A stretch of 64,000 bases of DNA from Aridibacter sp. (GCA_041576495.1 JBFGKW010000002.1:5541-69540), one strand, 5' to 3'; positions 1 to 20,584 are shown, numbered from the stretch's first letter. Notes: a model not told the origin generated them from the letters alone. Translations and numbers: made by a program.

Positions 1-194
1 TCGAGAACTTCAATTGCTTTTCTCGCATTATCAAGGTCTCCCCGGTCTCTATAGAGTAAGGCCGCTTGCGTAAGTGCGCCTCCCGGATCAACGACGACCG
101 TCGCAAGGCGCGCGTGCTCCGTATGCCCCGAAGTGCAGGAAATGGAAAGGAAAATCAAGAATGTGACAAGAAACTGAAGTGTGCGTATGTACAT
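1..194 (-). CDS. Partial CDS (first 64 codons; continues past the window start): putative lipoprotein or secreted protein
   Basis: Not in the supplied track because it runs off the edge. The reverse complement of 1..194 starts with ATG (194..192) and reads MYIRTLQFLVTFLIFLSISCTSGHTEHARLATVVVDPGGALTQAALLYRDRGDLDNARKAIEVL without a stop. It has a hydrophobic signal-like N-terminus ending in a lipobox-like LSISC. Confidence 0.4.
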   Translation of the reverse strand, partial: MYIRTLQFLVTFLIFLSISCTSGHTEHARLATVVVDPGGALTQAALLYRDRGDLDNARKAIEVL

Positions 195-326
195 TGTAAT
201 TACAAATTTGGGAAAATCTATCATTTTCTGTGAAATCTCCGTTCTTTTCCGCTTTCAAGGTTACCAAATGTTTGAATCTCTGCTATATTTCTAATTCAAA
301 CTAAGTGCTGAATCATTTTATCCATA

Positions 327-1001
327 ATGGCAAAGAAATCACAAGCGGCATCGTTTTATGATCTCGAGGGGACACTGGTCGGAACCAATCTTGTGCACAC
401 GCTCGGTTTTTATGCTCGGCGGCAACAGGGACTTTTCTCTACGATTCGAAAAAGCGTCACCACGGTTGCAAAACTTCCGATGTTTGGCGTCGCAGACCTC
501 TATAGCCGCAATGTTTTTAACGAGTTTTTTTTTCAGAGTTACAAAGGGGAATCCGAAGATCGGCTGCGGTATTTTGCAGATGAGCTTTTTGAAGATGTCC
601 TAAAGCCGGCGATTTATGAAGGCACGCCGGATCTGATCGAAAAATCCAAAAAGCTGGGTCATAAACAAATCGTCGTGACCGGGGCCTTGGATTTTAGTGT
701 GGCGCCGCTGGCCAATCATTTGGGAATCGATGTGTTTGCAGCCAATCGTCTGGAATTCGTAAACGGGTACGCCACCGGTAGACTGCTTCCGCCGGTTATG
801 GCGTCGGCCACCAAAGCGACCTGGATTCGTGAATATGCCGAAGAAAACGATATCAACTTGAGCAATTCATATGCTTATTCGGACAGCATTTCGGACCTTC
901 CGATGCTTTCAATTGTCGGACATCCAGTGGCGATTAGCCCCGACTTCCGGCTGAGACAGACGGCGCTTCAGCATGATTGGGCGATTTTAGATTTAACTTA
1001 A
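327..1001 (+). CDS. HAD-superfamily hydrolase, subfamily IB (SerB/PSPase-like)
   Basis: 224-aa ORF. HAD motif I reads FYDLEGTLV (nt 354..380), with Glu at the Asp+2 position. Also present are VVTGA (motif II), a Lys in SATKATW (motif III) and YSDSISDLPML (motif IV). It is the first gene of a five-gene same-strand block. Confidence 0.8.
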   Translation: MAKKSQAASFYDLEGTLVGTNLVHTLGFYARRQQGLFSTIRKSVTTVAKLPMFGVADLYSRNVFNEFFFQSYKGESEDRLRYFADELFEDVLKPAIYEGTPDLIEKSKKLGHKQIVVTGALDFSVAPLANHLGIDVFAANRLEFVNGYATGRLLPPVMASATKATWIREYAEENDINLSNSYAYSDSISDLPMLSIVGHPVAISPDFRLRQTALQHDWAILDLT

Positions 1002-1005
1002 ATTT

Positions 1006-1965
1006 ATGAGAAAACTAAATGTATTGATTGTGGCAGCATTACCGATGATTTTGTTGTCCTTGATCCCTCGATCAGAAGCTCTTAAGGCATTCAATGGCAA
1101 CGAAGGCATCCCGTTTTCAAGTGTTATCGATTCTCAGCGGCTGATCGAAGATGTCAGATACTTGTCATCCGACGAATTGAAGGGTCGCGAAGCGGGGACG
1201 AACGAAAGCATCGTCGCCAGAGATTATGTTACAAAGAGATTCAAGCAGTCTGGAATTGAATTTCTTGAAAAGGACTATATACAAGAATTCTCGTTTAAGG
1301 ACGGACGAAATAATACCATCCAGGCTGCCAACGTAGTCGGTTTGATCAAAGGGAATTCTGAGCCCGGCAAATTCATAGTCATTTCCGCCCATTACGACCA
1401 TTTGGGAACAAGAAACGGCCAAATATACAACGGTGCAGACGACAATGCCTCGGGAACGGCTGCTCTTTTTGCAGTAGCCAAATACTTTAATGACAATTCG
1501 CCAAATTATTCATTAATCTTCGCGGCATTTGATGCAGAAGAGAAAGGCTCGCCGGGTGCGGTCCACTTTCTTCGCAACATGCCGCAAAATGGAGAGAATA
1601 TTGTCCTCAACATTAATCTGGATATGATTTCCCGTAGCGATAAAAACGAACTTTACGCTGCCGGCACCTATCATTACCCGGCCTGGAAAAAATATTTAGT
1701 TAGGCTTAAAGGCGCCGCTCCGGTGACATTGTTGTTCGGACACGACCGCCCTGAGCTGAAAACCGACGACTGGACAACCCAATCCGACCACCGGATATTT
1801 CATCAAAACAATATTCCATTTATATATTTTGGCGTCGAAGATCACGACGACTACCACAAGCCGACTGATGATTTCGATAGGATCCAACCGCAATTTTATA
1901 TAAACGCCGTTGAAACGATCCTGATGGCGGTTAAATCGATTGATGCGAACTACAAAAAGCACTAA
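1006..1965 (+). CDS. M28-family metallo-aminopeptidase, secreted
   Basis: 319-aa ORF with a hydrophobic signal-like N-terminus. M28 metal-ligand pattern: [31 protein letters not shown], and a C-terminal DYHKPTDD. It starts 4 bp after the HAD-IB stop. Confidence 0.85.
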
Positions 1966-1988
1966 TCCGCAGATTAAGAGAAAATAGC

Positions 1989-3590
1989 ATGGCATTGCAA
2001 CTGCGAAGAAAAACACACGAATCAGTCGTTTATATCGACCGCGACTCGGCGCCGAGAATTATGCCGTTCGGGGAAGATTTTATTCTCGAGGATATCCCGG
2101 TCGGCACCCGCGTTATCTATCCAAACCCACCGATCAAGGGACTCCCAAACCGGGAAGCCGCGATTCGATACGCCGTAAACAAACCGATCGGGACGAAACC
2201 GCTTTATGCGCAGCTGGAGCCGGGATTGAAAGTGACAATCGCGATGGATGATATCTCACTTCCGCTTCCCCCGATGGCAACCCCGGATGTTCGCCAGACA
2301 ATGCTTGAAGTGGTATTGGATATGTGCCACGCGAACGGCGTCGACGACATTCATCTGATCATTGCCAATTCGCTTCATCGCAAGATGACCGAATGGGAAA
2401 TGAAGCGGATGGTGGGTTCGCGGATTCACAACGCATTCTACCCCGACCGCTACTACAATCATGATGCCGAAGACGATGACGGCTTGGTAACAATTGGACA
2501 TACCGGCCATAACGAGCCGTTGCGCATCAACCGGCGCTGCGTGGAAAGTGATTTACTTATTTATCTGAATATTAATCTTGTTCCGATGGACGGCGGACAT
2601 AAATCGGTCGCCGTCGGCCTTTGCGATTACGAGTCGCTGCGGGCCCACCATGAGCCGCAGACCATTATCGATTCCGATTCCTATATGTACCCGCCGGATT
2701 CCGACCTTAACCACAAGGTTCATCGACTGGGGAAACTGGTTGATGAGCATATGAATGTTTTTCACATTGAGACCGCCTTAAACAACCGCATGTTTGGCGA
2801 AGGGTACGATATCCTCACCCGTAATGAGGATGAGTTTGATTTCACCGACCGCCTGAAATGGGAAACTATGAAAAAGATGTTTTCCAAGCTGCCGCGCGGG
2901 GCCAGGCGGAAACTGCTTCATAAAATACCGGCCCAGTACGAGGTAATCGGATGTTTCGCAGGCGAAACCGAAAAGGTTCACGAGAAGATTCTGGAAAAGA
3001 ACTACGAGCAGTATATTGTCCCCATTAAGGGCCAGTGCGACATAATGATTACGGGAATTCCGGATATTTCTCCCTATAACGTTTATTCGGCATTAAATCC
3101 GCTGCTGGTTCAGGTGATGGCGCTCGGATATCACTTCAACATGTACAAAAACAAGCCGCTCTTAAGAAAAGACGGAGTCATGATCGTGACACATCCTTGC
3201 TTTGACGAGTTTGATCACGATTTCCATCCGAGTTATATAGAATTTTTCCACCGGCTGCTGCCTGAATCCCGCGATGCATTTTTTCTGCGCGAAAAATACG
3301 AACGTGAGTTTGCAGAAAACCCCGCTTACATTGAGATGTACCGTCGGGGAAACGCCTATCACGGAGCGCACCCGTTTTTTATGTGGTATTGGGGAGAAAA
3401 CGGCAGGCAGCACGTTGGCAAGGTAATAGTCGCGGGCGCGGAAAATGCACATGTGCCCGAGTTATTAGGCTGGGAACGAGCGGACAATCTGACCGAAGCG
3501 ATAGCGATGGCGCGAAGTTATAAGGGAAGAAATGCCGAAATCACGATGCTTCATCAACCGGTGATCGGTTTGGCCGAGGTAACCGATTGA
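1989..3590 (+). CDS. LarA-like / DUF2088 (lactate-racemase N-terminal domain family) protein
   Basis: 533-aa ORF whose N-terminal half resembles the DUF2088/Lar_N family. It contains DGGHK (nt 2589..2603; Lys205), reminiscent of the SGGxK lysine motif of LarA, with an HH pair 15-16 residues downstream. This is recognition from memory; no alignment was run. Confidence 0.65.
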
Positions 3591-3623
3591 GGAATTTGCG
3601 AAAATATACGGGCATCACCACAG

Positions 3624-6600
3624 ATGAAATTATCACCAACAGCGATTTATAAAAATAAGATTATCTTCTTTATCGGCGGAACCGGGTTTGTCGGAAAGGT
3701 GACGCTGTCGATGCTACTGAATAATTTTCCGGACATCGGTAAGGTCTATGTCATCGTCCGTGCAAGAAACGAAGAAGAATCGCTTAACCGATTCTGGAAT
3801 AGTGTAGTAACTTCACCTACTTTCGATCCGTTGCGGGAAAAATACGGGGACGGTTTTGAGGATTTTATTCGAACCAAGGTTGAGTCGGTGAACGGCGATG
3901 TCTCAAGTGACTTTCTTGGAATGACGGAAGAGAGGGCCCGGGAAATTATGTCGGATTGCGATGTGATCATTAACTCTGCGGGCAATGTCACCTTTAATCC
4001 GCCGCTTGAAAGCGCATTGCGGACCAACGTCGTCGGGACGAATAACGTGTTAGGTCTGTCGAGAATGATGAACCGACCCTGCCTGGTGCATGTTTCTACT
4101 TGTTTTGTGGCAGGAAAGCGGAGCGGATCAATTTGGGAAAATGAACCCGTAGTCGGATATTTTCCGAGAAAAAATGAGCTGGTCGGAACAACGTTTGACG
4201 TAAACAGGGAAATCGAAGACTGCGCACGAATCTCTGAACAGGCACGCCAGGAGGCGGATGATGCGGTTAATATCGCCAAATTCCGGGAACTCGCGCGGAC
4301 CCGGCTGCGCGAAGAGGGAAGGGATCTGGATGACGAACGGGCGGTTAGTTCGGCCGTTTTTCGCGAACGCAAGATGTGGATCCGTGAACGGACTACCGAG
4401 CTTGGCGAAGAGCGCGCCGATTATTGGGGGTGGACGAATATTTATACATATTCGAAGTCTCTCGCCGAACAAATCGTGGCACAGCAGGATGACATCGTGA
4501 AGGTTCTGGTCCGTCCTTCGATAGTCGAATCTTCCGTCAAATATCCGTTTCCGGGTTGGAACGAAGGATTCACTACCACCGCGCCGCTGATCTTGATTGC
4601 CCTTCGCGGGCAGCCCTTGATTCCCGTTAACGAAAAGCTGGTGCTGGACATCATTCCGGTCGATATGGTTGCCGGGGCAATGCTCGGAGCAGCAATGGAA
4701 GCGATGGAAAACGATCAGCCGCCGCTTGTTTTCCAGGCCGCTACGGGCGATTCGAATCCGAATGATATGAAGCGAATCACCGGACTTGTCGGGCTCTACA
4801 AACGCCAGCATTTCAGGGAAAAAGAGACCGGAAATGCGATCGTCAACCGCGTTCACAAGATGATTGAAACATCTCCCGCAACCCAAAAAGCATACGAACG
4901 GACATCGGCACCGATGCTAAACAATTTGGCTAAACGGACCAATCGTTTGCTTGATAAGGCAACTCCGGAATGGGGCGGGGGAAGAATCGGAAATATTGTC
5001 GCTGATTTAAAGAAATCGGTCGATGAGTTTGAGCGGACGACGAATGAAACGATGGAGGCATTTGCTCTGTTCAAGCCATTCATGGTTGATCACGAATACA
5101 ATTACCGTTCGGATCATGTCAGGGAGTTGATGTCAAAAATCAAAAAAAGCGAGCAGCCTCTTTTGCCCTGGTACCCGGAAACCCTGGACTGGTACGAGTA
5201 CTGGCTCAAAATTCATTTTCCCGGATTACGAAAATGGGTACTGCCGCAGCTTGAAGAAGACTTAAAGGCAGTCGAGCGTAGGGATTATACTTACAAAGAT
5301 CTGGTCGATCTTTTCGACACTGCCACCAAACGATTCCCGACCAGAGTTTCGATGAAAATCGAACGCAACGGCCGTCTCGAGCAATACACCTATCAGGATG
5401 TCCGCGAGTTAACCTTGCGGGCCGCCGGGTTTTTTGCGGCCAAAGGCATCGAACCGGAGGACCGGGTGATGTTGTTTTCGCACAATATGCCCGAATGGGG
5501 TTTGAGCTATTTTGGAATAATCAAGGCCGGCGCGACCGCCATTCCGATCGATCCGGCCAGCTCGGTGGATGAGATTATGCGGTTTGCCAGGGCGGGTGAA
5601 GCGTCTGCAATCGTAATCAGTCCCAAGCTTCAGGAAGAAAATCCTGATTTGGCGGACCGGCTGAAAACAGAGAAATTAGGTGTCAAAGTATACAATTTTA
5701 ATGAAGTATTCGAGATGACATCCGAAACCGAAGAAGCAAAACGCTTGGCACGATTGCCGGACCGAATCGTTGCCACATCTCCGGCTTCCTTAATATTCAC
5801 ATCCGGGACGACCGGGTCTCCAAAAGCCGTAATGCTGTCACACAAGAATTTCACGAGCATGGTTTCGATGCTTTCGTCAGTTTTGGAAATGACCATCGAA
5901 GATGGGGTTTTATCTGTACTGCCGCTTCATCATACGTTCGAATTTTCTGCCGGTTTTCTGACCCCGTTTACCAACGGAACTCAGATCCGGTACCTCGAAG
6001 AATTGACCAGTGACGAACTCGCCCGGGCAATTGAAAAGGGACACGTCACCGGCATGGTCGGTGTTCCGGCGCTGTGGGAGATGCTTCACCGAAGAATTAA
6101 AAGCCGGCTCAGGGACAGGGGCGATTGGTTTGCCGATTTGGCCGATAACGTGATTGATTTCAATGCCTGGCTGCGGGACAACACGCCTTTTAATCTCGGT
6201 CCGGTAATTTTTTTCCCTATTCATGAAGGAATGGGCGGACGAATGCGCTATATGATATCGGGCGGATCGGCGCTCAGCGAAAAGGTACAAAAAGACTTGC
6301 ACGGTCTCGGATTCAATGTCCTCGAAGGTTACGGTTTAACCGAATCATCGCCGGTCCTGACGGTTGCCAGGCCGCAAAACGAACTCATCAGGGGAAGCGT
6401 TGGGAAACCGCTGCCGGGCGTTGAAGTGATGATTGATTCGCCGGATGAAAAGGGAGTCGGGGAAGTTCTCGCGCGCGGGCAGAACATAATGCTCGGCTAT
6501 TACAATAATGATCAGGCGACCGATGAAGTGATCGATGAAAACAGGTGGCTCCGGACGGGCGATCTGGGAAAACTGGACGAGGAAGGAAATCTCTTTATTG

Positions 6601-8045
6601 TCGGACGTTCAAAAGACGTGATTATCGATTCAAACGGGAAAAATATTTATCCGGATGAAATAGAAGACCTTTACGGAAAGTCCGATTTCATAAACGAATT
6701 ATCAGTAGTCGGGTATCCGGACGAAACCGGCGGCGAGAGAATCGCATGTCTCGTCGTTCCTGATTACGAGAAAGATATATCCCTGACCCGTGCAGCTACC
6801 AACAAGGAAGTAGAAAAACATTTCCGGGAAGTCTCGGCAACGCTTCCCTATTTCAAACGCGTTCAGCTTTTGCATTTGACGCCTTTTGAACTGCCGCGAA
6901 CCGCTACCCGCAAGGTCAAGCGGCCGGAAGTGGTCGAAATGATCGGGACGCTTGAAAACCGCGCAAAGAGCAAAACAAACAAAGTTGTCGAATCAAAAGG
7001 CGACGACAATGTTTTGTGGATTAGAAAAATCGTCGCGAGCGTTTCCGGCCGGTCGCTTTCTGAAGTCGCGTCAGATTCCCGTCTTAGCGATCTGGGATTC
7101 GATTCGTTGATGTTTGTCGAACTTCAAGCTGCGGTTGAAGACGGCGGCGGACGTGTCCTCTCTCCCGATGAGCTTGATGAAGTTCAGACCGTGAGGGAAC
7201 TTTTGACCATGGTTCAGAGGGTCGATAAATCAAAACACATCGCCGATGAACCCGGAGCCGAAAAAGGGGACGATGAAGAATTATATATCCCATCTCTCGT
7301 CAAAACCGTTGGCAACCAAGTTGTTACTTTTGCCCAGAAAATTCTCTACCAAAATATTTTGGAAACCAATATCGAGGGCAGGTCAAACGTGCCGTCTCAC
7401 GTCAACTTTATCGTCTCATCAAATCACGCATCTCATCTCGATATGGGGCTGCTGAAGTTTGCGCTGGGTGATGGGGTTGCCGAACAGACTGTGGCCGTTG
7501 CGGCGGCGGATTATTGGTTTGACACGAAATATAAGCGGGCCTATATGAACAATTTCACATCGCTTGTGCCGATCGAGCGGTCGGGCAGCCTGCGCCAATC
7601 ACTCCGTCACGTGACGCAGATTTTAAAAGAGGGATATAACTGTTTGATTTTTCCAGAGGGAACGCGCAGCTTGACCGGCGAAATGGCGGAATTCAAGCCG
7701 GTTATCGGTTATCTCGCTTTGAACAACAAGGTTGGTATCCTGCCGCTCTATTTGTGGGGAACGTTTGAAGCATTTCCGAAAGGAACGACGGTGCCGAAGG
7801 TCGAAAAAGTGGGCTCTAAAATCGGGGCGCGGGTCGGACGATTTTTGGAGTATGAAGAACTTGCCGAAATGGTTAAAGGAATTCCCAATACCGAGGCCTA
7901 TCGTTTAGTAGCTGCCAGGGTTCAGCACGAAGTAGAAAATATGCGGGATGGCCGGCGGGATAAGTTCGACATCAAGGCGGTCCGCAAGAAATGGAAAGCC
8001 GAACGACGTAAAACGAAGAAAATTGAGCCGGTTATCGATGAATAA
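3624..8045 (+). CDS. Four-domain lipid megaenzyme: fatty-acyl reductase (NAD_binding_4 type) / AMP-dependent acyl ligase / acyl carrier domain / PlsC-type acyltransferase (ElbD-like)
   Basis: 1473-aa uninterrupted ORF. Rossmann motif GGTGFVG (nt 3675..3695) plus YTYSK (YxxxK). AMP-binding core LIFTSGTTGSPK (5790..5828), with GYGLTE and TGDLG. Phosphopantetheine site LGFDS with Ser1161 (7104..7106). PlsC H(X)4D motif NHASHLD (7422..7442) and FPEGTR. Confidence 0.85.
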   Translation: MKLSPTAIYKNKIIFFIGGTGFVGKVTLSMLLNNFPDIGKVYVIVRARNEEESLNRFWNSVVTSPTFDPLREKYGDGFEDFIRTKVESVNGDVSSDFLGMTEERAREIMSDCDVIINSAGNVTFNPPLESALRTNVVGTNNVLGLSRMMNRPCLVHVSTCFVAGKRSGSIWENEPVVGYFPRKNELVGTTFDVNREIEDCARISEQARQEADDAVNIAKFRELARTRLREEGRDLDDERAVSSAVFRERKMWIRERTTELGEERADYWGWTNIYTYSKSLAEQIVAQQDDIVKVLVRPSIVESSVKYPFPGWNEGFTTTAPLILIALRGQPLIPVNEKLVLDIIPVDMVAGAMLGAAMEAMENDQPPLVFQAATGDSNPNDMKRITGLVGLYKRQHFREKETGNAIVNRVHKMIETSPATQKAYERTSAPMLNNLAKRTNRLLDKATPEWGGGRIGNIVADLKKSVDEFERTTNETMEAFALFKPFMVDHEYNYRSDHVRELMSKIKKSEQPLLPWYPETLDWYEYWLKIHFPGLRKWVLPQLEEDLKAVERRDYTYKDLVDLFDTATKRFPTRVSMKIERNGRLEQYTYQDVRELTLRAAGFFAAKGIEPEDRVMLFSHNMPEWGLSYFGIIKAGATAIPIDPASSVDEIMRFARAGEASAIVISPKLQEENPDLADRLKTEKLGVKVYNFNEVFEMTSETEEAKRLARLPDRIVATSPASLIFTSGTTGSPKAVMLSHKNFTSMVSMLSSVLEMTIEDGVLSVLPLHHTFEFSAGFLTPFTNGTQIRYLEELTSDELARAIEKGHVTGMVGVPALWEMLHRRIKSRLRDRGDWFADLADNVIDFNAWLRDNTPFNLGPVIFFPIHEGMGGRMRYMISGGSALSEKVQKDLHGLGFNVLEGYGLTESSPVLTVARPQNELIRGSVGKPLPGVEVMIDSPDEKGVGEVLARGQNIMLGYYNNDQATDEVIDENRWLRTGDLGKLDEEGNLFIVGRSKDVIIDSNGKNIYPDEIEDLYGKSDFINELSVVGYPDETGGERIACLVVPDYEKDISLTRAATNKEVEKHFREVSATLPYFKRVQLLHLTPFELPRTATRKVKRPEVVEMIGTLENRAKSKTNKVVESKGDDNVLWIRKIVASVSGRSLSEVASDSRLSDLGFDSLMFVELQAAVEDGGGRVLSPDELDEVQTVRELLTMVQRVDKSKHIADEPGAEKGDDEELYIPSLVKTVGNQVVTFAQKILYQNILETNIEGRSNVPSHVNFIVSSNHASHLDMGLLKFALGDGVAEQTVAVAAADYWFDTKYKRAYMNNFTSLVPIERSGSLRQSLRHVTQILKEGYNCLIFPEGTRSLTGEMAEFKPVIGYLALNNKVGILPLYLWGTFEAFPKGTTVPKVEKVGSKIGARVGRFLEYEELAEMVKGIPNTEAYRLVAARVQHEVENMRDGRRDKFDIKAVRKKWKAERRKTKKIEPVIDE

Positions 8046-8118
8046 ATTCGGGACGTTATTCTTCATCTGTTGCGCGGTCGCCTTCCGGACCCCGGGTTGA
8101 ATCGAATTGTAATTTGAG

Positions 8119-9153
8119 ATGGCGCGAAAAACAAAAGCATTAGCAAAGACACCAAAAAAAATCCTGATCACAGGCGGTACCGGATTTCTGGGGACTCATA
8201 TCGTCAAACAATTGCTTGATTCGGGCGAAAAGAATCTCAGAGTGATGGCGTCATCCGTACCCGGTTGGATGAAGGACCGCGGCGTGGAGGCGTGCCTGGG
8301 TTCGGTAACCAGGGAAGGAGATGTCGCCGGTGCGGTCAAGGGAGTATCGGCTATCTACCATCTGGCGGGTAAAGTTTCACGGGATAATGAAGACGCGGCT
8401 TTGATGAACCGGGTTCACGTTCAGGGAACCCGAATTTTGTGCGAAGCCGCTAAGGAGGCGGGTGTCAAGACTTTTGTAGTCGCATCTTCAAGCGGAACCA
8501 TCGCGGTCAGTGAAGACAAACAAGTCCTGGATGAAACTTTCCCGCCGCCGATGGATTTGATTTCGCGCTTTGCATATTACTCGTCAAAGTTTTATCAGGA
8601 AAAAACGGCGTTGGAGAATTTTGACGGAAAGGGACTAAAACTGGTTATCTTAAATCCTTCGTTGCTTCTCGGAACCGGAGATGAGCGGCTCAGTTCGACC
8701 AAGCCGGTTTTGGATTTTCTCGCGCGCAAGATCCCGTTTACGCCTTCGGGCGGATTGAATTTTGTGGATGCCAGAGACGCAGCTACCGCGTTTATCAACG
8801 CATCCGAAAAGGGAAAACACAAGGAGAAATATCTGGTCGGTGCTGAAAATATGAAGTTTGAAGAATTTTTCGGCAGACTCGAAAGATTATCAGGCGTTTC
8901 CGCTCCCTTGCTTCGGCTGCCGAAATCGATCTCCGTTGCAGGTGCAAATTTGGTTGATTCGTTCTTTAAGCACCGGAAAAAGACGCCGCCATTTGAAGCA
9001 AAAGAGGTCGAACAGGCCGAATTATTTTGGTATTTCAACTCGACAAAAGCCAAAGAAGAACTGGATTTTACCCCGAGGGATCCGCAGGAGACCTTAAACG
9101 ATACGATCAATTATCTGAGGAAGAATATCCTGGGTGAGGAAGTATTTGGTTAA
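8119..9153 (+). CDS. NAD-dependent epimerase/dehydratase-family (extended SDR) protein
   Basis: 344-aa ORF with ITGGTGFLGTHIV (GxxGxxG) and YYSSK (YxxxK). It is the last gene of the 327..9153 same-strand block. Confidence 0.85.
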   Translation: MARKTKALAKTPKKILITGGTGFLGTHIVKQLLDSGEKNLRVMASSVPGWMKDRGVEACLGSVTREGDVAGAVKGVSAIYHLAGKVSRDNEDAALMNRVHVQGTRILCEAAKEAGVKTFVVASSSGTIAVSEDKQVLDETFPPPMDLISRFAYYSSKFYQEKTALENFDGKGLKLVILNPSLLLGTGDERLSSTKPVLDFLARKIPFTPSGGLNFVDARDAATAFINASEKGKHKEKYLVGAENMKFEEFFGRLERLSGVSAPLLRLPKSISVAGANLVDSFFKHRKKTPPFEAKEVEQAELFWYFNSTKAKEELDFTPRDPQETLNDTINYLRKNILGEEVFG

Positions 9154-9188
9154 GTATATTTGTATCAGCGAATTCGTCTTGGTTACAT

Positions 9189-10781
9189 TTATTTATAAGT
9201 ATCCATAAACGTCGGTTTTCTTCTCGCGTTGCTGATCTGTTCCCACGCATATGCGATCTTGATCAGAGTCGGTTCTGAAAACGCCCGGCCGAAAAACGAC
9301 ATCCCAATCGGCATCTCGCTGATAAATCCGGACGGAACGGTTATATTCGGATAACCGGAGACCGCCGCCATACTCGAACTTCCGACGTAGTTTGTCGGGC
9401 TGTCGCCCATTATTAAATCGATCAGCCACGATTGGGAATTAGACGGCGCCAAAAGCGCGTTCAGATTCTCCTTGTCCATAATCAGATCGATTCCCTTATC
9501 CTGAGTTAAAACCTTGCTCCGGAGAAGCGCAAGCCTGTATGAACGGTCGTTAAGGTCTTTTTTCTCCTGCGCCTTTTCAAAGATTTCCTGCCCGAAATAC
9601 GGCATTTCCTTATCCGAATTCTGCTTGTTGAACTCGATTAATTTTTGAAGGGTGTCATATTTACCGCCCCGGGATTCTAGATACTTGTTGAGGTCAGCCT
9701 TAAATTCGTATAAGAGAACTTCATATTCATCATCACCGTATTTCCGAAAATGAGGAAATTCTACGTCCACCAACTCTGCTCCGTTCTTTTTTAAAGTCTC
9801 TATGTTTTTGTTCATCAAGCCGTCGAGCTTGTAGTTTTTGCCAAAGTATTGGCGGACGATTCCGATTTTCATTCCCTTCAACCCGTTCTTATCCAAATAT
9901 TTCGTGTAATCTTTTTCTCCCTTTGAGACCCCCTGTGAAGTGATCGAATCCGTTTGATCTTCGCCGATCATCGCGTTGAGCAAAATTACCGCGTCAGTGA
10001 CAGTTCGCGCCATCGGGCCCGCAGTATCCTGACTATGGGCGATCGGGATGATGCCGCTTCGAGAGACGAGTCCGAGGGTCGGTTTGATTCCGACGATCCC
10101 GTTTATTGAAGACGGACACACCACTGAGCCGTCGGTCTCCGTTCCGATGGCCACGGCTGCTAGATTGGCGGCCACCGCAACCCCCGATCCGGAAGATGAA
10201 CCGCATGGACTTCTATCCAGAATATATGGATTTCTGGTCTGGCCGCCTCGCCCTGACCAGCCGCTCGATGAATTCTCCGAACGGAAATTTGCCCACTCGC
10301 TTAAATTGGTTTTGCCCAGCAGCACAGCCCCGGCGTTTCGAAGTTGACGGACCACAAAGGCATCCCTTTTGGGAGTTGGAGCGTCAACAAGGGCCAGACT
10401 CCCGGCGGTTGTTTTCATCTTATCGGCTGTATCGATATTGTCTTTTATAACTACCGGGATCCCGTGCATCTCCGATCTCACGTTTCCATCCGCCCGCTCT
10501 TTGTCCATCCGTGCTGCAATCGCCATCGCATCCGGGTTTAACTCGATTATAGACTTCAGTTTGCCGTCGTATTTCTTGATCCTTCCAAGATATATTTCGA
10601 CAAGCTGTTTTGATGTTACGTCACCGTTCTTCATCGCCTTTTGAAGATCCAGCACCGTCATTTCTTCGATGTCGAATTGTCTGACAGAAGGGCAGTCAGA
10701 AGCCGCAATTTTCTTACCCATCAAAAAAAATGTTCCTCCCGAGATACCGACCTGAAAAAAATCACGGCGATTGATTGACAT
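9189..10781 (-). CDS. Amidase-signature family amidase, Tat-exported
   Basis: 530-aa ORF with a twin-arginine-like N-terminus SINRRDFFQVG. Amidase-signature elements: VVIKDNID (Lys), GGQTRNP, and CGSSSGSGVAVAAN (Gly/Ser-rich signature). Confidence 0.9.
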   Translation of the reverse strand: MSINRRDFFQVGISGGTFFLMGKKIAASDCPSVRQFDIEEMTVLDLQKAMKNGDVTSKQLVEIYLGRIKKYDGKLKSIIELNPDAMAIAARMDKERADGNVRSEMHGIPVVIKDNIDTADKMKTTAGSLALVDAPTPKRDAFVVRQLRNAGAVLLGKTNLSEWANFRSENSSSGWSGRGGQTRNPYILDRSPCGSSSGSGVAVAANLAAVAIGTETDGSVVCPSSINGIVGIKPTLGLVSRSGIIPIAHSQDTAGPMARTVTDAVILLNAMIGEDQTDSITSQGVSKGEKDYTKYLDKNGLKGMKIGIVRQYFGKNYKLDGLMNKNIETLKKNGAELVDVEFPHFRKYGDDEYEVLLYEFKADLNKYLESRGGKYDTLQKLIEFNKQNSDKEMPYFGQEIFEKAQEKKDLNDRSYRLALLRSKVLTQDKGIDLIMDKENLNALLAPSNSQSWLIDLIMGDSPTNYVGSSSMAAVSGYPNITVPSGFISEMPIGMSFFGRAFSEPTLIKIAYAWEQISNARRKPTFMDTYK

Positions 10782-11029
10782 AGTTTCTCTCCAAATTAAT
10801 GAATTTTACTTTCTTGAACTTGGTTTAACTTATATTGCACAGGCGATTCTTGGCAAACCAAACCGGGGCCGGACGGGGCAGAAATCAAAAATGGTGAATT
10901 GCCGGATATGTACGCCAAGATCGATATACACGGCGTTCTAATGCGAAAAATAGTTGATTGTTTGGTTAGTTAGACTTACTTTACAAATCGATTCATAATA
11001 ATCAAAAATTGGTTTCTGAGGTGTTTCTT

Positions 11030-12808
11030 ATGTCGGCAAAAGTACTTTTATTCATTGTTATTCTGCTTTCGGCATTCGCCGCCGGTTGTCGCTCCGAAAC
11101 AAACACAAATGAAATAAAGGAGATCCCGAAGGTGGACAATGATGCCGCTGATAAAGAATTTGAGCAGTTGGCCGTTCGTTTCGTCGACCAATCACTTGAG
11201 CTAAACCCCGAAGAAGCGACCCGGCTTGGAGAACACAAATTCGACGGACGACTTAACGATTACAGCGTAAACGGGATCAAGCGGTCCCTTGATTTCAATA
11301 AGTCTTTCCTGGCAGAACTTGAGAAGATCCCGCTCGCTAAATTGAGCAGGGTAAACAGTATTGACTATCGAATCCTTAAACATAACCTCGAGTACGCAGT
11401 TTTTCAGATCGAGACCCTCAAAGAACACGAATGGAATCCGTTGACATATAACCCGGGCGGGGCAATTTACAACCTAATTGCCCGCGATTTCGCACCCTTA
11501 AATGAACGGCTGGTTAACGTGAAATCCCGGCTCGAAAAGATTCCCGATGTTCTCGAAGCTGCCAGGGCAAATTTGAATTCTCCGCCAAAAATCCATACGG
11601 AAACCGCGATATCCCAGAACCAGGGAGTCATCAAACTTATAAAAAAAGATCTTCAAGAATTTGTGGAACAAGCCGGGTTGACGAAGGAATTTGCACCAGT
11701 CCAGGAACGGGCAATCTCCGCGCTAGAAGAATACGGCAAATGGCTTGAGAATGATTTATTGCCGCGTTCAAACGGAGAATCTCGCCTGGGTGCCGAAAGA
11801 TACAGCCAAAAGCTTCGATTCTCAACTGATTCAGATTTAACCAAAGAAGAAATCTTAAAACGTGCGGAGGAAGATCTCGTTAAAACTCAGGATCGGATGT
11901 ACAAGATCGCGCTCCCACTCTATAACAAGTTTTTCCCGGGCGAATCGGATGTGAAAATACTGGGTGAGAAAAGTAAAATTTGCAAGGCGGTATTGGCCCG
12001 GCTGGCGGAAGACCGTCCGGACGACGAGACGATCGTCGGCCAGGCGAAAAAAGACGTTGAAGAAGCGACGGATTTTGTACGCGTGAAAGATCTTATGACT
12101 GTTCCCGACGAGCCGCTGGACGTGATCGAAATGCCTGAATTCCAGCGGGGCGTGGCAATCGCCTACTTTGATTCGGCCGGCCCGCTTGAGAAAAAAAACG
12201 AAACGTTTTATGCGATCGCACCTACCCCTTCCGATTGGGATGAAACCCGCCGCGAATCATTTTTTAGGGAATATAACGACTATATGGTTAAAAACCTCAC
12301 GGTTCACGAAGCGATGCCGGGCCATTACCTTCAGATCATGCATTCCAACCAATTTAAGGCTCCGACCATGATACGCGCGATATTTCGAAGCGGGACCTTT
12401 ACCGAGGGATGGGCGGTTTATTCCGAACAGCTAATGGCGGAAAATGGTTACGGCGGACCGGAAGTCGAAATGCAGCAGCTGAAAATGAGACTTCGCGTAA
12501 TCATTAACGCCATTATCGATCAGAAAATTCACTCTGCCGGAATGACTGAAAAGCAAGCGTTAGACCTGATGATGAATGAAGGCTACCAAGAAGAGGGCGA
12601 GGCCGCCGGCAAGTGGCGCCGGGCAAACCTGACGTCAGCGCAGCTTTCTACATATTTCGTTGGGAGCTCTGAAATGATTGATCTCGTCAATGCATATCGG
12701 GCAAAGAATGGCGAAAATACCAGTTCGGATCGGACTATGCATGACAAGCTCCTCTCATTTGGTTCGCCGCCCCCCAAATATATAAAGGAAATGCTCGAAC
12801 TCCAGTGA
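11030..12808 (+). CDS. DUF885-family lipoprotein (metallopeptidase-like HExxH-variant family)
   Basis: The ORF track starts at 11009, but the ATG at 11030 has a GAGGTG 6 nt upstream and gives MSAKVLLFIVILLSAFAAGC (signal plus lipobox). HEAMPGHYLQ and the overall layout are typical of DUF885. Confidence 0.8.
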   Translation: MSAKVLLFIVILLSAFAAGCRSETNTNEIKEIPKVDNDAADKEFEQLAVRFVDQSLELNPEEATRLGEHKFDGRLNDYSVNGIKRSLDFNKSFLAELEKIPLAKLSRVNSIDYRILKHNLEYAVFQIETLKEHEWNPLTYNPGGAIYNLIARDFAPLNERLVNVKSRLEKIPDVLEAARANLNSPPKIHTETAISQNQGVIKLIKKDLQEFVEQAGLTKEFAPVQERAISALEEYGKWLENDLLPRSNGESRLGAERYSQKLRFSTDSDLTKEEILKRAEEDLVKTQDRMYKIALPLYNKFFPGESDVKILGEKSKICKAVLARLAEDRPDDETIVGQAKKDVEEATDFVRVKDLMTVPDEPLDVIEMPEFQRGVAIAYFDSAGPLEKKNETFYAIAPTPSDWDETRRESFFREYNDYMVKNLTVHEAMPGHYLQIMHSNQFKAPTMIRAIFRSGTFTEGWAVYSEQLMAENGYGGPEVEMQQLKMRLRVIINAIIDQKIHSAGMTEKQALDLMMNEGYQEEGEAAGKWRRANLTSAQLSTYFVGSSEMIDLVNAYRAKNGENTSSDRTMHDKLLSFGSPPPKYIKEMLELQ

Positions 12809-12837
12809 TCGATGTTAGCCGGGTTGCGGAAGTAGTA

Positions 12838-12871
12838 AGAAAAAGAGGACCGCATCTAATGCCGTCCTCTT
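12838..12871 (-). terminator. Candidate rho-independent terminator for the 12897..13229 gene
   Basis: Perfect 8-bp stem AAGAGGAC (12843..12850) / GTCCTCTT (12864..12871) with a 13-nt loop. On the minus strand it is followed by a U-run (complement of the A-run at 12840..12844). It lies between convergent genes. Confidence 0.45.
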
Positions 12872-12896
12872 GGAACCGGAATGAGGCTTCGAACGT

Positions 12897-13229
12897 TTAC
12901 GGCCTGTTTTTGCGATTGTGCTTTGCCCTGTAAATTCTCCGGCTGTTTTTATTTTCGATTCTATGAATTTTCAGCCGCTCTTTTTTGGTAACCTCACCAT
13001 CTGACTTTGCCCGTTTCTTCGCCTTTTGAGTCTTCTTTTGACCCTTTTGAAGTTTTATAAACTCGCCGCGTGTGATGCTGCCGTTCTTAACTCCCTGACG
13101 GATCCGTTTTTGCTGATTCTTTTGCCGTTTGTTGATTCCCGGCGTCTCCGTCTGGGCACTTCCGGCTATCGTCAAACCGAATATAAAACAAATTGACACA
13201 ATAATTAAACCCAATGATTTCTTCATCAT
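12897..13229 (-). CDS. Small secreted Lys/Arg-rich protein, function unknown
   Basis: 110-aa ORF with signal peptide MMKKSLGLIIVSICFIFGLTIAGSAQ followed by a very basic mature part. It has an internal duplication: NGSITRGEFIKLQKGQ versus DGEVTKKERLKIHRIE. Confidence 0.6.
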   Translation of the reverse strand: MMKKSLGLIIVSICFIFGLTIAGSAQTETPGINKRQKNQQKRIRQGVKNGSITRGEFIKLQKGQKKTQKAKKRAKSDGEVTKKERLKIHRIENKNSRRIYRAKHNRKNRP

Positions 13230-13407
13230 TATTCCTCCAAGTAAATTAATTTTGCGCCAACGTTGACTCGTCTATAAGACGGCTGAAATCGCAAGATGGT
13301 CTATAAAAAAGTCAGATTAGACTTCTGGCGGCCGATCAACAACGAGAATCAGCCCGCCAATCACGAGGTTTGAGAGCAAAAATTAATTGCTCATCGGCCA
13401 TCTTCTC

Positions 13408-15828
13408 TCATCTCGGACGTGCGTCCTTGACATATTTATCCATCCATTGAATCTGCTCCCAAAGTACGTGTTCGATCGATTCGCGACCGGAATATCCGTG
13501 TGATTCGTGCGGCAGCATTACGAGCCGCGCTGTGCCGCCGTTGCCGCGGATCGCCGCAAACATACGTTCCGATTGCATCGGATAGGTGCCCGAATTATTA
13601 TCTGCTTCGCCGTGAATCAAAAGCATCGGCTCATTGATCTTATTTGCGCGCATAAACGGCGAAAGCGTGTAATAACTTTCGGGTGCTTCCCAAAACGATC
13701 TTCGTTCCGATTGAAATCCAAACGGAGTCAAGGTTCGGTTATATGCCCCGCTCCGGGCGATTCCGGCCCTGAAGAGGTCGGAGTTGGCAAGTAAATGGGC
13801 CGTCATAAACGCTCCGTATGAATGTCCCCCGACCGCCACCCGATCGGGGTCGACGACACCCATATCGGCTCCTTTATTGATCGCTGCTGCGGCTCCGGCA
13901 ACGAGCTGTTTTATGAATGTGTCGTTGACAGTCAGCGGATCGCCGACGATCGGAACCGTTACATCATTTAGAATCGCATATCCCCGCAGGAGGAGAAACA
14001 GATGAGAATAACCTCCAATGGATGTAAATCGGTTTGTCGATCCGGTAACCTGCCCGGCAACGTCCCCGTCCGTGTACTCGCGCGGATAAGCCCATAATAA
14101 CGCGGGAAGTCTCGTACCTTTTTTATAATTCGGCGGGAGGTAAAGCGTAAATGAAAGATCGACTCCATCATCCCGTTTATATTTGACCAGCTGCTTGGTA
14201 ATTCCGCGGAGTTGCGGAGTCGGGTCTTCGAAGTTGGTGATCGGAACCACAGATGTCGCATTAGCCCTTGCCTCCGGCGTGTTAGTTCGGTCACGGAGGT
14301 AAAGATTTGGCGGATCCGTTTCGGATTCACGCCGTGTAATAAAAGCATCGGCCTCATCGTCAACCAGCGCGACGAAAGTCTCGTATTCGTCAGGGCCCGA
14401 ACGGAAAAGTTCGTCCTTTACCAGCGTTTTGATATTCATCTTGTGAAGAAACGGACGGTCGCCCTGGGGAGTTGATCCGCGTCCGGAGAGATAAATCCAA
14501 TCACCGTTCTGAATGACAACCCTTTTTCCGTTTGGAAGAAGTTTGGTTTCCAGCGAGCCGATGTCATTATACCGATCCCGGATATTCAAATCCGAGATAA
14601 GCTTTAAGCTGGACGGATTTCTATAATCTGTCATAAAAATCCGACGGCGCTGTTTGTCACGATCATAATCGTAGAACCACATTGTGCCGGTCGCTTCGCC
14701 GAATATTCGGCCGACATATCGATGTTCGATTTTCAGAATATCTATTGGCTGAGTCGAAAAGGGAGCGGGCAGCATGACTAATTTGTCGCGGTGTGACGCC
14801 TTATTGCGGGGATCACCGCCGTCGAGCGCCTGCGCCCACATCAGTGTCGCGGGTTCGTTAGGTATCCAGCCAAAATTCCTCGGCGAATTGGCTACACCGC
14901 CATTCGGTAGATTGTCCTGAATCGGAATACTGGCAACTTTGTGAACCAGTTTCCCGTTTTTATCCCAAACCTCCACTTCGTTGGGAAATCTTGAATACGG
15001 GAACAGGTATGTATAAGGCCGTGTGATCTTTGACACGAGAATAAACCTGCCGTCGGGAGATACATCTGCTTCATCAAATATCGCCGGTTTGTTTATTAAA
15101 CTTATGCCGCCGTTGACCCGGATCACCGCAAGATGTGAGGCGGCGTAATAATCAAATAACTTTTCGTCGTTTGGCGAAGACAATAAATCCTGGTATGTAG
15201 GGATCGCAGCGGCACGGCCTGCAGTTTCCTGGATGCTGGGGGAGGTAGGCACATAAACCCGGGATGGCGCAGCTCCGCGGTTCTTAGAGACCGTATTTAC
15301 CAGCAGGCTCCGTTGATCAGGCATCCATTCGAACCCGCCAAACGCGGAATTAACCTGTACCCCCTTTATTTTTGTTGCCTTTCCGTTGGCCGTCTCGATA
15401 ACCCATAGCTCGACCCCGGTCGGGGTAAGATTTCCGGCAGCAATATATTTGCCGTCGGCACTCCAGTTCGGCGAGACCATCTTGGCGCTCCTGGGCAAGT
15501 TAATTGCCGTTTCCTTTCCGTCCGAAACATTCTTAAGTGTCAGGTTTGGATAATACCGTTCGCCGTGCCTGGAATTGGTAGCCGGGTTGATCCGGAGTCC
15601 GGCAAGTCTCAGCATCGGTTCCGAAAGATCCGCGATCGGCGGGTACCGGACAGGCTCAAGTAAGAGTATTTTATCCCGGGCCGGACTCAACGACGTAAAC
15701 GGCGTCGCCGGGGCATTTAAAATTTCCAGGATTTCCTTTGGAGGCTTTTGGTATCCCTGCGCCCCAACGAACGAAATACAAACCAAAAAAAGTATGACCA
15801 GAACAAATGCCTTCGAAATAACTTTCAT
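13408..15828 (-). CDS. S9-family serine peptidase (prolyl oligopeptidase / dipeptidyl-peptidase type), secreted
   Basis: 806-aa ORF with a signal peptide and a long propeller-like N-terminal region. The C-terminal alpha/beta hydrolase carries GGHSYGAFM (nucleophile Ser), HGEADNN (Asp) and HESHGY (His). Confidence 0.9.
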   Translation of the reverse strand: MKVISKAFVLVILFLVCISFVGAQGYQKPPKEILEILNAPATPFTSLSPARDKILLLEPVRYPPIADLSEPMLRLAGLRINPATNSRHGERYYPNLTLKNVSDGKETAINLPRSAKMVSPNWSADGKYIAAGNLTPTGVELWVIETANGKATKIKGVQVNSAFGGFEWMPDQRSLLVNTVSKNRGAAPSRVYVPTSPSIQETAGRAAAIPTYQDLLSSPNDEKLFDYYAASHLAVIRVNGGISLINKPAIFDEADVSPDGRFILVSKITRPYTYLFPYSRFPNEVEVWDKNGKLVHKVASIPIQDNLPNGGVANSPRNFGWIPNEPATLMWAQALDGGDPRNKASHRDKLVMLPAPFSTQPIDILKIEHRYVGRIFGEATGTMWFYDYDRDKQRRRIFMTDYRNPSSLKLISDLNIRDRYNDIGSLETKLLPNGKRVVIQNGDWIYLSGRGSTPQGDRPFLHKMNIKTLVKDELFRSGPDEYETFVALVDDEADAFITRRESETDPPNLYLRDRTNTPEARANATSVVPITNFEDPTPQLRGITKQLVKYKRDDGVDLSFTLYLPPNYKKGTRLPALLWAYPREYTDGDVAGQVTGSTNRFTSIGGYSHLFLLLRGYAILNDVTVPIVGDPLTVNDTFIKQLVAGAAAAINKGADMGVVDPDRVAVGGHSYGAFMTAHLLANSDLFRAGIARSGAYNRTLTPFGFQSERRSFWEAPESYYTLSPFMRANKINEPMLLIHGEADNNSGTYPMQSERMFAAIRGNGGTARLVMLPHESHGYSGRESIEHVLWEQIQWMDKYVKDARPR

Positions 15829-15864
15829 TTTTAATCTCCCGTTTCAATCATTGCGGCAATTCCT

Positions 15865-15897
15865 AGGTGACTTAATCAGCTTGTTCATAAGTCACCT
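15865..15897. promoter_or_regulatory. Perfect 10-bp inverted repeat in a divergent promoter region (candidate operator or stem-loop)
   Basis: AGGTGACTTA (15865..15874) and TAAGTCACCT (15888..15897) are separated by 13 nt. The repeat sits 37 bp from the S9 peptidase start codon and about 225 bp upstream of the permease gene. Confidence 0.3.
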
Positions 15898-16122
15898 GAT
15901 GCTTATTTCTTTCGAGAAGTAATCGATAAATGTTCGAATCTATAAGGCGATTCGCTCAATGAATTGGTTCTGGGGAACCCTTGCTGCATCGAATGGTCGC
16001 GTAAAAGCAGCAGTGATAACGCTTTACACTCATCCCAAAAAAACTATTTCTTTACGAACTTATGATAAAAGAGTATAAACGATAAGCGCCTGACAAAGAA
16101 GCCTTTTGAAAATCACAAACAA

Positions 16123-18753: not shown

Positions 18754-19575
18754 TCACACTTCAGGGATATAATCACTATTTTCCCGAATCGATTCGATTT
18801 CGCCCGCATTGATAATGATCGTTTCGTTTTCTTCAGTCACAACCCGAAGAGCTCCATTCGCTTCCAGCCCTGCGGTAGCCCCCAATATCATTTTTGTATC
18901 CGATATGATGACGCGTACCTTTTTACCATGGAAATAAGATGAGCGCTTCTGCCATTCCTCCCGAATTTTTTGAGGACCCGCTTGATCCAACAAGATTTCA
19001 TAAAAGTGAATTAGGAATTTGGTCAGCGCGTTAACGAGTTCTTCCTCCTCGGGCCTTCGTCCGGATTCCGAGAAGACCGAAGTCGCCGAGGTTTCAAGCT
19101 GCGGCGGAAAGTCTTTCGAATCGAGATTTAATCCGATACCTACAATTACCGCCGGCTGACTCTCCGATCCGGTCGATTCGGCGAGGATCCCACAGATTTT
19201 CTTGCCGCCGACCAAAATGTCATTCGGCCATTTAATATCCGGTTTGAGATCATAAAGACTAGCGAGCGTTTCATAAACGGCGACCGCAGCCATCAATGTG
19301 ATCATCGTGCGGAAGCCGGCCTCAAGCTTCGGACGGAGCAAAATACTAAGATATAGTCCCGAACCCTTACCGGAAATCCAAACCCTGCCCCGGCGTCCGC
19401 GACCTGCCGTTTGTTCACCGGCCAGGATACACAAACCTTCGTCGGCACCGCGTTTGGCATGGGCTATTGCGGTCGCGTTTGTCGATTCAATCGAATCAAA
19501 TTTGAGTATGGTTATGTTCAATAAAAGTCCTAGCAGCAACGATCCGGCAGCTATTTCGTCGGGCGCGGTTTCCAC
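18754..19575 (-). CDS. birA: Biotin--[acetyl-CoA-carboxylase] ligase (group I, no N-terminal HTH)
   Basis: 273-aa ORF with FDSIESTN, GRGRRGRVW (the GRGRxGRxW biotin-binding loop) and KWPNDI. The ATG at 19575 overlaps the egtD stop by 25 nt, so a downstream non-ATG start is possible. Confidence 0.85.
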   Translation of the reverse strand: METAPDEIAAGSLLLGLLLNITILKFDSIESTNATAIAHAKRGADEGLCILAGEQTAGRGRRGRVWISGKGSGLYLSILLRPKLEAGFRTMITLMAAVAVYETLASLYDLKPDIKWPNDILVGGKKICGILAESTGSESQPAVIVGIGLNLDSKDFPPQLETSATSVFSESGRRPEEEELVNALTKFLIHFYEILLDQAGPQKIREEWQKRSSYFHGKKVRVIISDTKMILGATAGLEANGALRVVTEENETIIINAGEIESIRENSDYIPEV

Positions 19576-20528: not shown

Positions 20529-20584
20529 TAAATCCCCGTTGTAGATCGTAATCGTTTGATGATGAGTCGTGTGAAGGTGTCTCG

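Follow-up and report, generated by a model that had tools for sequence, protein, structure and literature searches.

What is made by a compact bacterial operon built around a 1473-amino-acid (aa) megaenzyme, and which reactions can be assigned to the genes that accompany it? The question is raised by the beginning of a 64,000-nucleotide stretch of Aridibacter sp. DNA (GCA_041576495.1 JBFGKW010000002.1:5541-69540; hereafter the window), whose host is a Pyrinomonadaceae bacterium of Acidobacteriota subdivision 4 (SD4). ORF calling on the window yielded five open reading frames (ORFs) on the + strand, each with an ATG start, at 327-1001, 1006-1965, 1989-3590, 3624-8045 and 8119-9153. Only 4, 23, 33 and 73 bp separate them, and strand switches delimit the operon on both sides. 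A first-pass annotation of this DNA, which took the locus for an ether-lipid (elb) operon, had given the same coordinates, strand and gaps, and all were reproduced.

The fourth gene, elbD (3624..8045), encodes the megaenzyme, which has four domains by Pfam, motifs and homology. Its N-terminal reductase domain (aa 18-540; 3675..5243), of the fatty acyl reductase (FAR) type, consists of NAD_binding_4 (PF07993, E 8e-53; aa 18-353) and Sterile (PF03015, E 1e-7; aa 467-540), contains GGTGFVG at aa 18-24 and YTYSK at aa 274-278, and has a fatty acyl-CoA reductase, 7eoz, as its best PDB match (E 3e-47). The adenylation (fatty-acid ligase) domain that follows (aa 565-1097; 5316..6914) is built from AMP-binding (PF00501, E 4.6e-74; aa 565-960) and AMP-binding_C (PF13193, E 5e-9; aa 1012-1097), with the motif LIFTSGTTGSPK at aa 723-734 (nt 5790-5825). 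Then come an acyl-carrier domain (aa 1132-1196; 7017..7211; PF00550, E 2e-12), whose LGFDS motif (aa 1157-1161) ends in the phosphopantetheine site Ser1161 (nt 7104-7106), and an acyltransferase domain of the PlsC/Aas type (aa 1249-1377; 7368..7754; PF01553, E 5.8e-19). The latter has its HX4D motif as NHASHLD (nt 7422-7442) and FPEGTR at aa 1343-1348, is closest in the PDB to PlsC (5kym, E 1e-16), and is matched in NCBIfam by both an Aas-type acyl-[ACP]--phospholipid O-acyltransferase model and AGP_acyltrn. Catalytic motifs are intact in all four domains. The Pfam hidden Markov models (HMMs) returned the domain order predicted in the first-pass annotation (PF07993, PF00501, PF00550, PF01553), and every motif listed there is present in the translation, although the end of LIFTSGTTGSPK had been placed 3 nt too far along, at 5828 instead of 5825.

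Homologues 75-88% identical to ElbD number in the hundreds and are annotated as Pyrinomonadaceae, Blastocatellia or Acidobacteriota metagenome-assembled genomes (MAGs). Outside the phylum, the protein is collinear with the ElbD of one Myxococcales locus (L081) over 1468 of 1473 aa (48% identity, 1395 bits) and is 38% identical over 1453 aa to that of another (L083). The expectation that similarity to ElbD would be better than generic was thus borne out by the 48% match to L081. The E. coli Aas protein (acyl-acyl-carrier-protein (ACP) synthetase / 2-acyl-glycerophosphoethanolamine acyltransferase) also places an ACP-loading AMP-ligase and a PlsC-type acyltransferase in a single chain, and NCBIfam Aas models match both of these ElbD regions; however, the domain order is reversed, and ElbD has its own ACP and an N-terminal FAR-type reductase.

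The reference for such a locus is the elb operon of Myxococcus xanthus (Lorenzen et al. 2014; MIBiG BGC0000871; elbD = MXAN_1528). Its five genes are elbA, a short-chain dehydrogenase/reductase (SDR), elbB, which is HAD-like, elbC, of unknown function, elbD, encoding a FAR-acyl-CoA synthetase-ACP-acyltransferase protein, and elbE, another SDR (PMC9131029). The elbA gene is dispensable (PMC9131029), and the cluster is mostly cited as elbB-elbE. The window operon has the HAD gene, a LarA-like gene, the megaenzyme and an SDR gene in the order and strand of elbB, elbC, elbD and elbE. It differs in having no elbA, the gene 5' of elbB being divergent, and in having an M28 peptidase gene between elbB and elbC. 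The myxobacterial elbC could be named because MXAN_1529 adjoins elbD and is not an SDR. This protein is placed in LarA-homologue (LarAH) group 15 in the supplement of Desguin et al. 2020, together with homologues from Stigmatella, Corallococcus, Haliangium, Sorangium and Anaeromyxobacter (PMC7583248). The LarA-like protein of the window is 56% identical to MXAN_1529, with zero gaps, over 393 residues (sequence from that supplement), and its ElbD aligns with Myxococcales ElbDs along its full length at 38-48% identity. In the first-pass annotation, the HAD-IB and LarA-like genes had been treated as though they were additions with no biochemical step assigned; orthology, synteny and MXAN_1529 show them instead to be the canonical elbB and elbC.

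We examined gene order in the 80 Blastocatellia loci closest to ElbD (L001-L080; ElbD identity 74-88%), counting upstream genes in the 48 loci with at least 6 kb 5' of ElbD and downstream genes in the 56 with at least 7 kb 3'. The LarA-like gene was found in 47/48 (one copy frameshifted), the HAD gene in 46/48 and the SDR gene in 52/56, and order and strand were invariably HAD-(M28)-LarA-ElbD-SDR. At L057 (5990-7590) elbC extends over three reading frames, as a frameshifted pseudogene or through an assembly error, and at L029 ElbD stands alone, the other elb genes not being within 10 kb on either side. Most of these relatives have their elb genes apart, by 1-6 kb of passenger genes (median gap 1.15 kb for LarA-ElbD and 2.1 kb for ElbD-SDR); the window locus is a particularly compact version of the Blastocatellia elb cluster. 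Accessory lipid genes were considered as the content of this inter-elb DNA and rejected, since it holds an IS200 transposase, KilA-N, a PD-(D/E)XK nuclease, an M16 peptidase, GH47, GH92 and DUF5071. Examples are L009 (8812-10001 and 14568-19792) and L058 (6697-7572 and 14423-18729), and GH47 sits between elbD and elbE in two loci.

Myxococcota loci were reached by a representative search with ElbC followed by a search with a 53%-identical Myxococcales representative, and the latter returned homologues in Myxococcales, Polyangia, Bradymonadia and Longimicrobiaceae. A cassette of HAD, Lar_N, FAR/AMP/PP/acyltransferase megaenzyme and SDR is present in two Myxococcales genomes (L081/L082; L083), a Deltaproteobacteria MAG (L085) and a metagenomic contig (L086). 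Relative to L081, the window proteins are 62% (HAD), 68% (LarA-like), 48% (ElbD) and 49% (SDR) identical. The order is kept in Myxococcota, in Gemmatimonadota and in 46-47 of the 48 Blastocatellia loci, as the synteny comparison suggested in the first-pass annotation had anticipated. Together, the Pfam E-values and the cross-phylum synteny of the locus are far beyond chance.

On the basis of this orthology and synteny with the myxobacterial loci, we assign the HAD protein as ElbB, the LarA-like protein as ElbC, the megaenzyme as ElbD and the SDR as ElbE. We conclude that the locus is probably the acidobacterial orthologue of myxobacterial elbB-elbC-elbD-elbE, with the M28 gene inserted as a passenger, and that its products are most likely 1-O-alkyl-(2-acyl)-glycerol lipids. 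HMM domains, 48% ElbD identity and synteny all support the ElbD/elb identification with which the annotation began; ether-lipid production by the organism itself is what we infer from them.

Several features of the cassettes in other lineages are worth recording separately. In L084 (Longimicrobiaceae, Gemmatimonadota; 7298-17115) the elb cassette is split, with an AMP-ligase upstream and a stand-alone 82-aa ACP downstream, and the megaenzyme, of 1351 aa, has just a weak or degenerate AMP-binding region between reductase and acyltransferase. The L081 cassette resembles the acidobacterial cassette much more closely (48-68% identity) than does that of L083 (38-51%), both being annotated Myxococcales, and these identities suggest that elb cassettes may have been transferred between phyla. 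Four loci have another lipid gene beside the cassette, which encodes a DAGK_cat/YegS-type lipid kinase in two of them and a stand-alone PF01553 acyltransferase in the other two (L081 17288-18274; L084 5010-5996; L085 1586-2491; L086 6375-7217); neither is found near the operon in the window.

The M28 gene (1006..1965) encodes a 319-aa aminopeptidase (PF04389, E 1.6e-40) with an N-terminal signal peptide read from the translation. It could be a functional fifth member of the pathway here, for example as a processing or maturation enzyme for one of the Elb proteins or for a lipid head group, and its position invites the idea: the gene sits within the operon, separated from elbB by 4 bp and from elbC by 23 bp, and it recurs in 16/48 Blastocatellia loci, always between these two genes. 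We consider this improbable. The other 32 loci lack the gene, with just 9-23 bp between elbB and elbC in several of them, and it is absent from 5/5 distinct elb cassettes of other lineages, so that no other phylum sampled has it. Its mean identity among the Blastocatellia loci is just 56%, versus 71-87% for the elb genes, and its product carries a signal peptide while ElbD, at least in M. xanthus, is a soluble cytosolic protein (PMC9131029). Unrelated insertions (IS200, KilA-N, glycoside hydrolases) occupy cluster junctions in other relatives, and the M28 gene behaves like these passengers. Because it is secreted, fast-evolving and variably present, the peptidase is most likely a lineage-specific passenger and not a conserved elb component. 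The five-gene operon of the first-pass annotation therefore stands as a physical unit, with M28 co-oriented and tightly packed within it, but not as a five-gene conserved cluster.

How firmly does orthology to elb point to a glycerol ether as product? Deletion of elbD in M. xanthus strongly reduces alkyl and vinyl ether lipids, which are restored by complementation, and elbE mutants lose ether lipids, while knocking out AGPS has a minor effect (PMC9131029). For Acidobacteria, the passages of PMC10087280, PMC13159169 and a 2026 sponge-symbiont preprint that cite Sinninghe Damsté et al. 2018 report that several SD4 genomes carry the elb operon in full and propose it for iso-C15 and iso-diabolic-acid alkyl glycerol ethers; the link to SD4 Acidobacteria given in the first-pass annotation is thus in the literature, in the passages of PMC10087280 and PMC13159169 that cite that study. 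The window operon shares with those clusters, as they are described there, its phylum, subdivision, operon structure and proposed alkyl glycerol ether role, and differs in coming from an uncultured Pyrinomonadaceae genome and in being unusually compact. Among cultured relatives, SD4 species make alkyl glycerol ethers and do so without the alternative Ger enzyme. Alkyl ethers rather than plasmalogens are expected in the present case because no carF desaturase was found among the window ORFs scanned.

Some observations weigh against a glycerol ether product. The FAR and acyltransferase activities of ElbD went undetected in vitro and were not reconstituted, and no step beyond ACP loading has been shown (PMC9131029); Pontiella and others have ElbD homologues yet show no ether lipids; and the lipid literature describes the elb role in acidobacterial ether lipids as not conclusively demonstrated. 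On these grounds the cassette might activate and reduce fatty acids for a different end, perhaps an unusual lipid bearing acyl or hydroxyl groups, or fatty aldehydes or alcohols destined for wax or neutral lipids, and its connection with myxobacterial ether lipids would be indirect. We find this unlikely, given the elbD deletion and complementation results, the co-occurrence of alkyl glycerol ethers and elb in SD4 Acidobacteria that have no Ger route, and the fusion of a PlsC/Aas-type acyltransferase to the reductase, which argues for a glycerolipid product. An alkyl glycerol ether product is retained below.

Taken alone, the operon is a further instance of a published system and adds little, except as a clean, compact elb reference copy from the Pyrinomonadaceae, which are abundant in soils and bear on the debate over the producers of branched alkyl glycerol ethers and of branched glycerol dialkyl glycerol tetraether (brGDGT) proxies. 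With the elb operon of SD4 Acidobacteria already published, the fresh point is ElbC as a putative single-histidine nickel-pincer enzyme.

The elbC gene (1989..3590) encodes a long-form LarA homologue of 533 aa and of the LarAH group 14/15 type, a putative nickel-pincer-nucleotide (NPN) enzyme with a single catalytic His. It scores 798.5 bits against NCBIfam NF052592 (NPN-dependent hydroxyacid isomerase, LarAH14/15/16 family; cutoff 740) and contains Lar_N (PF09861, E 8.6e-36). The nearest solved structures are the single-His enzymes LarA_Sp and LarA_Bw (9q2u, 9q3k, 9q3j; E 1e-33, both domains aligned), in which NPN is bound covalently to a Lys, the fourth Ni ligand is a His, and the second of the two catalytic histidines is replaced by Asn (bioRxiv 10.1101/2025.08.19.671153). 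Aligned to LarA_Sp 9q2u, the cofactor-site stretch of elbC (2376..2651) encodes His130 (2376-2378), Asn196 (2574-2576), Lys205 (2601-2603) and His221 (2649-2651). His130 aligns with the catalytic His115 of LarA_Sp and is the equivalent of His108 of LarA_Lp; Lys205 aligns with Lys195, the NPN thioamide tether, and His221 with His211, the Ni ligand. Upstream, Asp88 aligns with the ribose Asp (Asp73), and downstream Tyr363 and His461 align with the pocket residues Tyr307 and His401. No second catalytic His was found in the alignment at the position of LarA_Lp His174; a conserved Asn196 is nearby. The same signature appears in the table of Desguin et al. 2020, which gives the pattern D, H, -, -, K, H for group 15 (PMC7583248).

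ElbC and groups 14/15 thus resemble the group 17 enzymes LarA_Sp and LarA_Bw in their long-form two-domain LarA fold, in the Asp, catalytic His, Lys and Ni-ligand His, and in the missing His174 equivalent. The differences are that ElbC is just ~30% identical to them, that LarA_Sp His306 is replaced by Pro362, and that its genomic context is one of lipid genes and not of triose-phosphate or sugar genes. The pattern Asp88, His130, Asn196, Lys205, His221, Tyr363, His461 is invariant in every ElbC encoded beside an ElbD and in the closest representatives, while many remoter long-form relatives are without His130, Lys205 and His221. Among relatives 27-40% identical to ElbC, P0127, P0129, P0132, P0136 and P0139-P0141 are examples that have lost the catalytic His, the NPN-tether Lys and the Ni-ligand His; such proteins may be pseudo-enzymes or may perform different chemistry. 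ElbC is also the best-conserved protein of the cassette, with a mean identity of 86.5% in Blastocatellia versus 77% for ElbD, and 68% versus 48% between phyla (window versus L081). We looked for informative fusions among the longer members of the family and found none of use; P0158, a 947-aa protein in which a chlorophyll a/b-binding domain is fused to an ElbC-like Lar_N, is probably either an algal (eukaryotic) homologue or a fusion created by the gene model.

A family name of 'NPN-dependent hydroxyacid isomerase' would suggest for ElbC the role of an ordinary soluble racemase or epimerase of alpha-hydroxy acids, for instance a gluconate/mannonate 2-epimerase, brought next to elbD from unrelated metabolism. 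A Phytophthora protein named LarAH15 in a 2024 JBC paper does epimerise D-mannonate and D-gluconate at C2 (PMC11770544). The names collide, however. The 2024 LarAH15 has a GntE-type pocket (PMC11770544), whereas group 15 of 2020 (PMC7583248) and NF052592 contain the myxobacterial ElbC clade, in which, as in groups 14/15 of 2020 generally, no residue equivalent to His174 is present. The two numbering schemes are therefore different, and automatic transfer of function between them would be wrong. We therefore rejected gluconate 2-epimerase as a function for ElbC. With just one of the two catalytic histidines, ElbC does not have a two-base racemase mechanism available to it and is not a canonical racemase. 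Moreover, ElbC accompanies ElbD almost universally across phyla, no other protein of the cassette is as well conserved, and LarAH14 from Frankia was inactive on seven classes of hydroxy acid. A stray racemase or epimerase is, on this evidence, very improbable.

The alternative that we favour is that ElbC belongs to the lipid pathway itself. In Desguin et al. 2020, Table S1 independently associates AGPAT, SerB-HAD, thioester-reductase, epimerase and acyl-CoA-synthetase COGs with LarAH groups 14/15/16; the main text makes no mention of lipids (PMC7583248). Our literature search returned no paper linking elbC to DUF2088, lactate racemase or NPN, nor one linking larBCE to myxobacteria. ElbC thereby connects two literatures that do not cite each other, the lipid papers, for which its function is unknown, and the LarA papers, for which groups 14/15 are single-His orphans.

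We propose a pathway on this basis. The ligase domain of ElbD would adenylate a long-chain fatty acid and load it onto the phosphopantetheine of Ser1161, as the ligase and ACP of M. xanthus ElbD do in vitro (PMC9131029). The FAR-type domain would then use NAD(P)H to reduce the ACP-bound acyl chain, yielding the fatty aldehyde or alcohol; we propose this because M. xanthus elbD mutants are devoid of the fatty aldehyde that the wild type contains (PMC9131029). The chain might next be joined through an ether bond to a glycerol-phosphate or dihydroxyacetone phosphate (DHAP)-type acceptor without AGPS, a step that we propose for ElbC by elimination and because of its conservation. Substrates resembling triose phosphates would fit, since the sister single-His group 17 adjoins triose-phosphate isomerase and GAPDH genes. 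Two routes can be envisaged. In the first, NPN would take the hydride from glycerol C2 and return it to alkyl C1' of a hemiacetal-derived intermediate, giving 1-O-alkyl-DHAP, for which one catalytic base suffices. In the second, covalent catalysis like that of AGPS would occur at the electrophilic NPN C4, which would trap the acyl-DHAP carbanion as the flavin does. ElbE could then reduce the resulting 2-keto intermediate or 1-O-alkyl-DHAP, the PlsC/Aas-type domain of ElbD would esterify sn-2 from a second acyl-ACP, and ElbB, as a SerB-like HAD-IB phosphatase, would remove phosphate from an intermediate.

The notion that ElbC is an NPN enzyme performing an AGPS-independent ether-forming step, by hydride shuttle or by covalent NPN-C4 catalysis, is offered tentatively, as a possibility suggested by residues and gene context, and four points weigh against it. 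In M. xanthus, an insertion in elbB that is presumed polar was partly rescued by elbD alone (PMC9131029). The actinobacterial LarAH group 16 keeps its AGPAT and HAD neighbours although its Lys and His cofactor residues are lost (PMC7583248). The inactivity of Frankia LarAH14, cited above against a racemase, counts here as well. Finally, the ORFs scanned in the 64-kb window include none of larB, larC and larE, which may be present elsewhere in the genome. Were the proposal true, it would be the first non-racemase chemistry in the LarA superfamily, and the production of alkyl ethers, possibly including brGDGT precursors, in Acidobacteria and Myxobacteria would depend on nickel and LarBCE. The identity of ElbC makes the ether-forming step of the Elb pathway directly testable.

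The proposed scheme can be set beside the eukaryotic, peroxisomal pathway (FAR1, GNPAT, AGPS, alkyl-DHAP reductase). In both, a FAR-type reductase and an acyltransferase would supply the alkyl donor and the glycerolipid backbone, and the SDR ElbE could play the role of alkyl-DHAP reductase. The bacterial operon differs in having a LarA-type enzyme in place of a flavoenzyme: the scanned ORFs of the window contain neither a FAD-linked oxidase nor an AGPS domain, and a copy elsewhere in the genome is possible. It differs too in that the acyltransferase of ElbD is PlsC/Aas-like and not GNPAT/PlsB-like, and the acyl chain is on an integrated ACP.

The two remaining elb proteins have features compatible with the places given to them. 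The elbB gene (327..1001) encodes a 224-aa protein resembling HAD-IB family phosphatases (PF12710, E 4e-31; TIGR01490 HAD-SF-IB-hyp1, 129 bits, cutoff 98), and its closest PDB entries are SerB phosphoserine phosphatases. Identity to the HAD at the same position in L081, L083 and L084 is 62%, 45% and 41%. Its motif I reads DLEGT (aa 12-16), unlike the DxDGT of M. xanthus ElbB. All 46 Blastocatellia homologues (46/46) share DLEGT, in which Glu occupies the general acid/base position (Asp+2), whereas motif I is DxDGT in Myxococcota and Gemmatimonadota; DLEGT is a fixed lineage-specific change in Blastocatellia ElbB. The elbE gene (8119..9153) encodes a 344-aa extended SDR of the 3-beta-hydroxysteroid dehydrogenase / HpnA-like kind (PF01370, E 7e-27; PF01073, E 2e-18). 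It scores 213 bits against the HpnA model, under the cutoff of 367, matches 3wj7 (a putative oxidoreductase) and sterol-4-alpha-carboxylate 3-dehydrogenase in the PDB, and resembles 3-beta-hydroxysteroid-type keto-reductases. It shares 38-49% identity with the SDRs that occupy this place in L081, L083 and L084, the highest value being that for L081.

On its 5' side, the operon is preceded by a divergent minus-strand gene, whose 5' end lies at ~1-190 and which runs off the window start; homologues of it lie upstream of the HAD gene in L001, L003 and L009. The divergent intergenic region 5' of elbB (191..326, + strand) is the probable promoter region of the operon, with one promoter-like site, a single candidate with an extended -10 at 261-289. 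Apart from this candidate, promoter and terminator scans of the window were at chance level, promoter-like sites in general occurring at chance frequency, and an Rfam search of the window gave 0 matches. Directly 3' of elbE lies a convergent amidase gene (9189-10781, - strand; NF006006, 691 bits versus a cutoff of 534). An amidase gene occupies this position in 15 relatives, and the adjacency probably reflects a conserved neighbourhood, not a shared function.

The scanned remainder of the window contained no Tes/Mss or further lipid genes, just housekeeping and unrelated ones. Among the latter are two adjacent genes that probably form an ergothioneine biosynthesis pair (19551-21769, - strand), one for an EgtD-like histidine methyltransferase (Methyltransf_33, E 3e-96) and one for an EgtB-like protein with DinB_2 and FGE-sulfatase domains. 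Two unusual fusion proteins were also seen on the + strand: one at 26393-28693 combines a Ser/Thr kinase, PEGA and a C-terminal FGE-sulfatase domain, and the other, of 1039 aa at 32767-35886, has an ABC ATPase and an ABC-2 membrane domain fused with three FHA domains.

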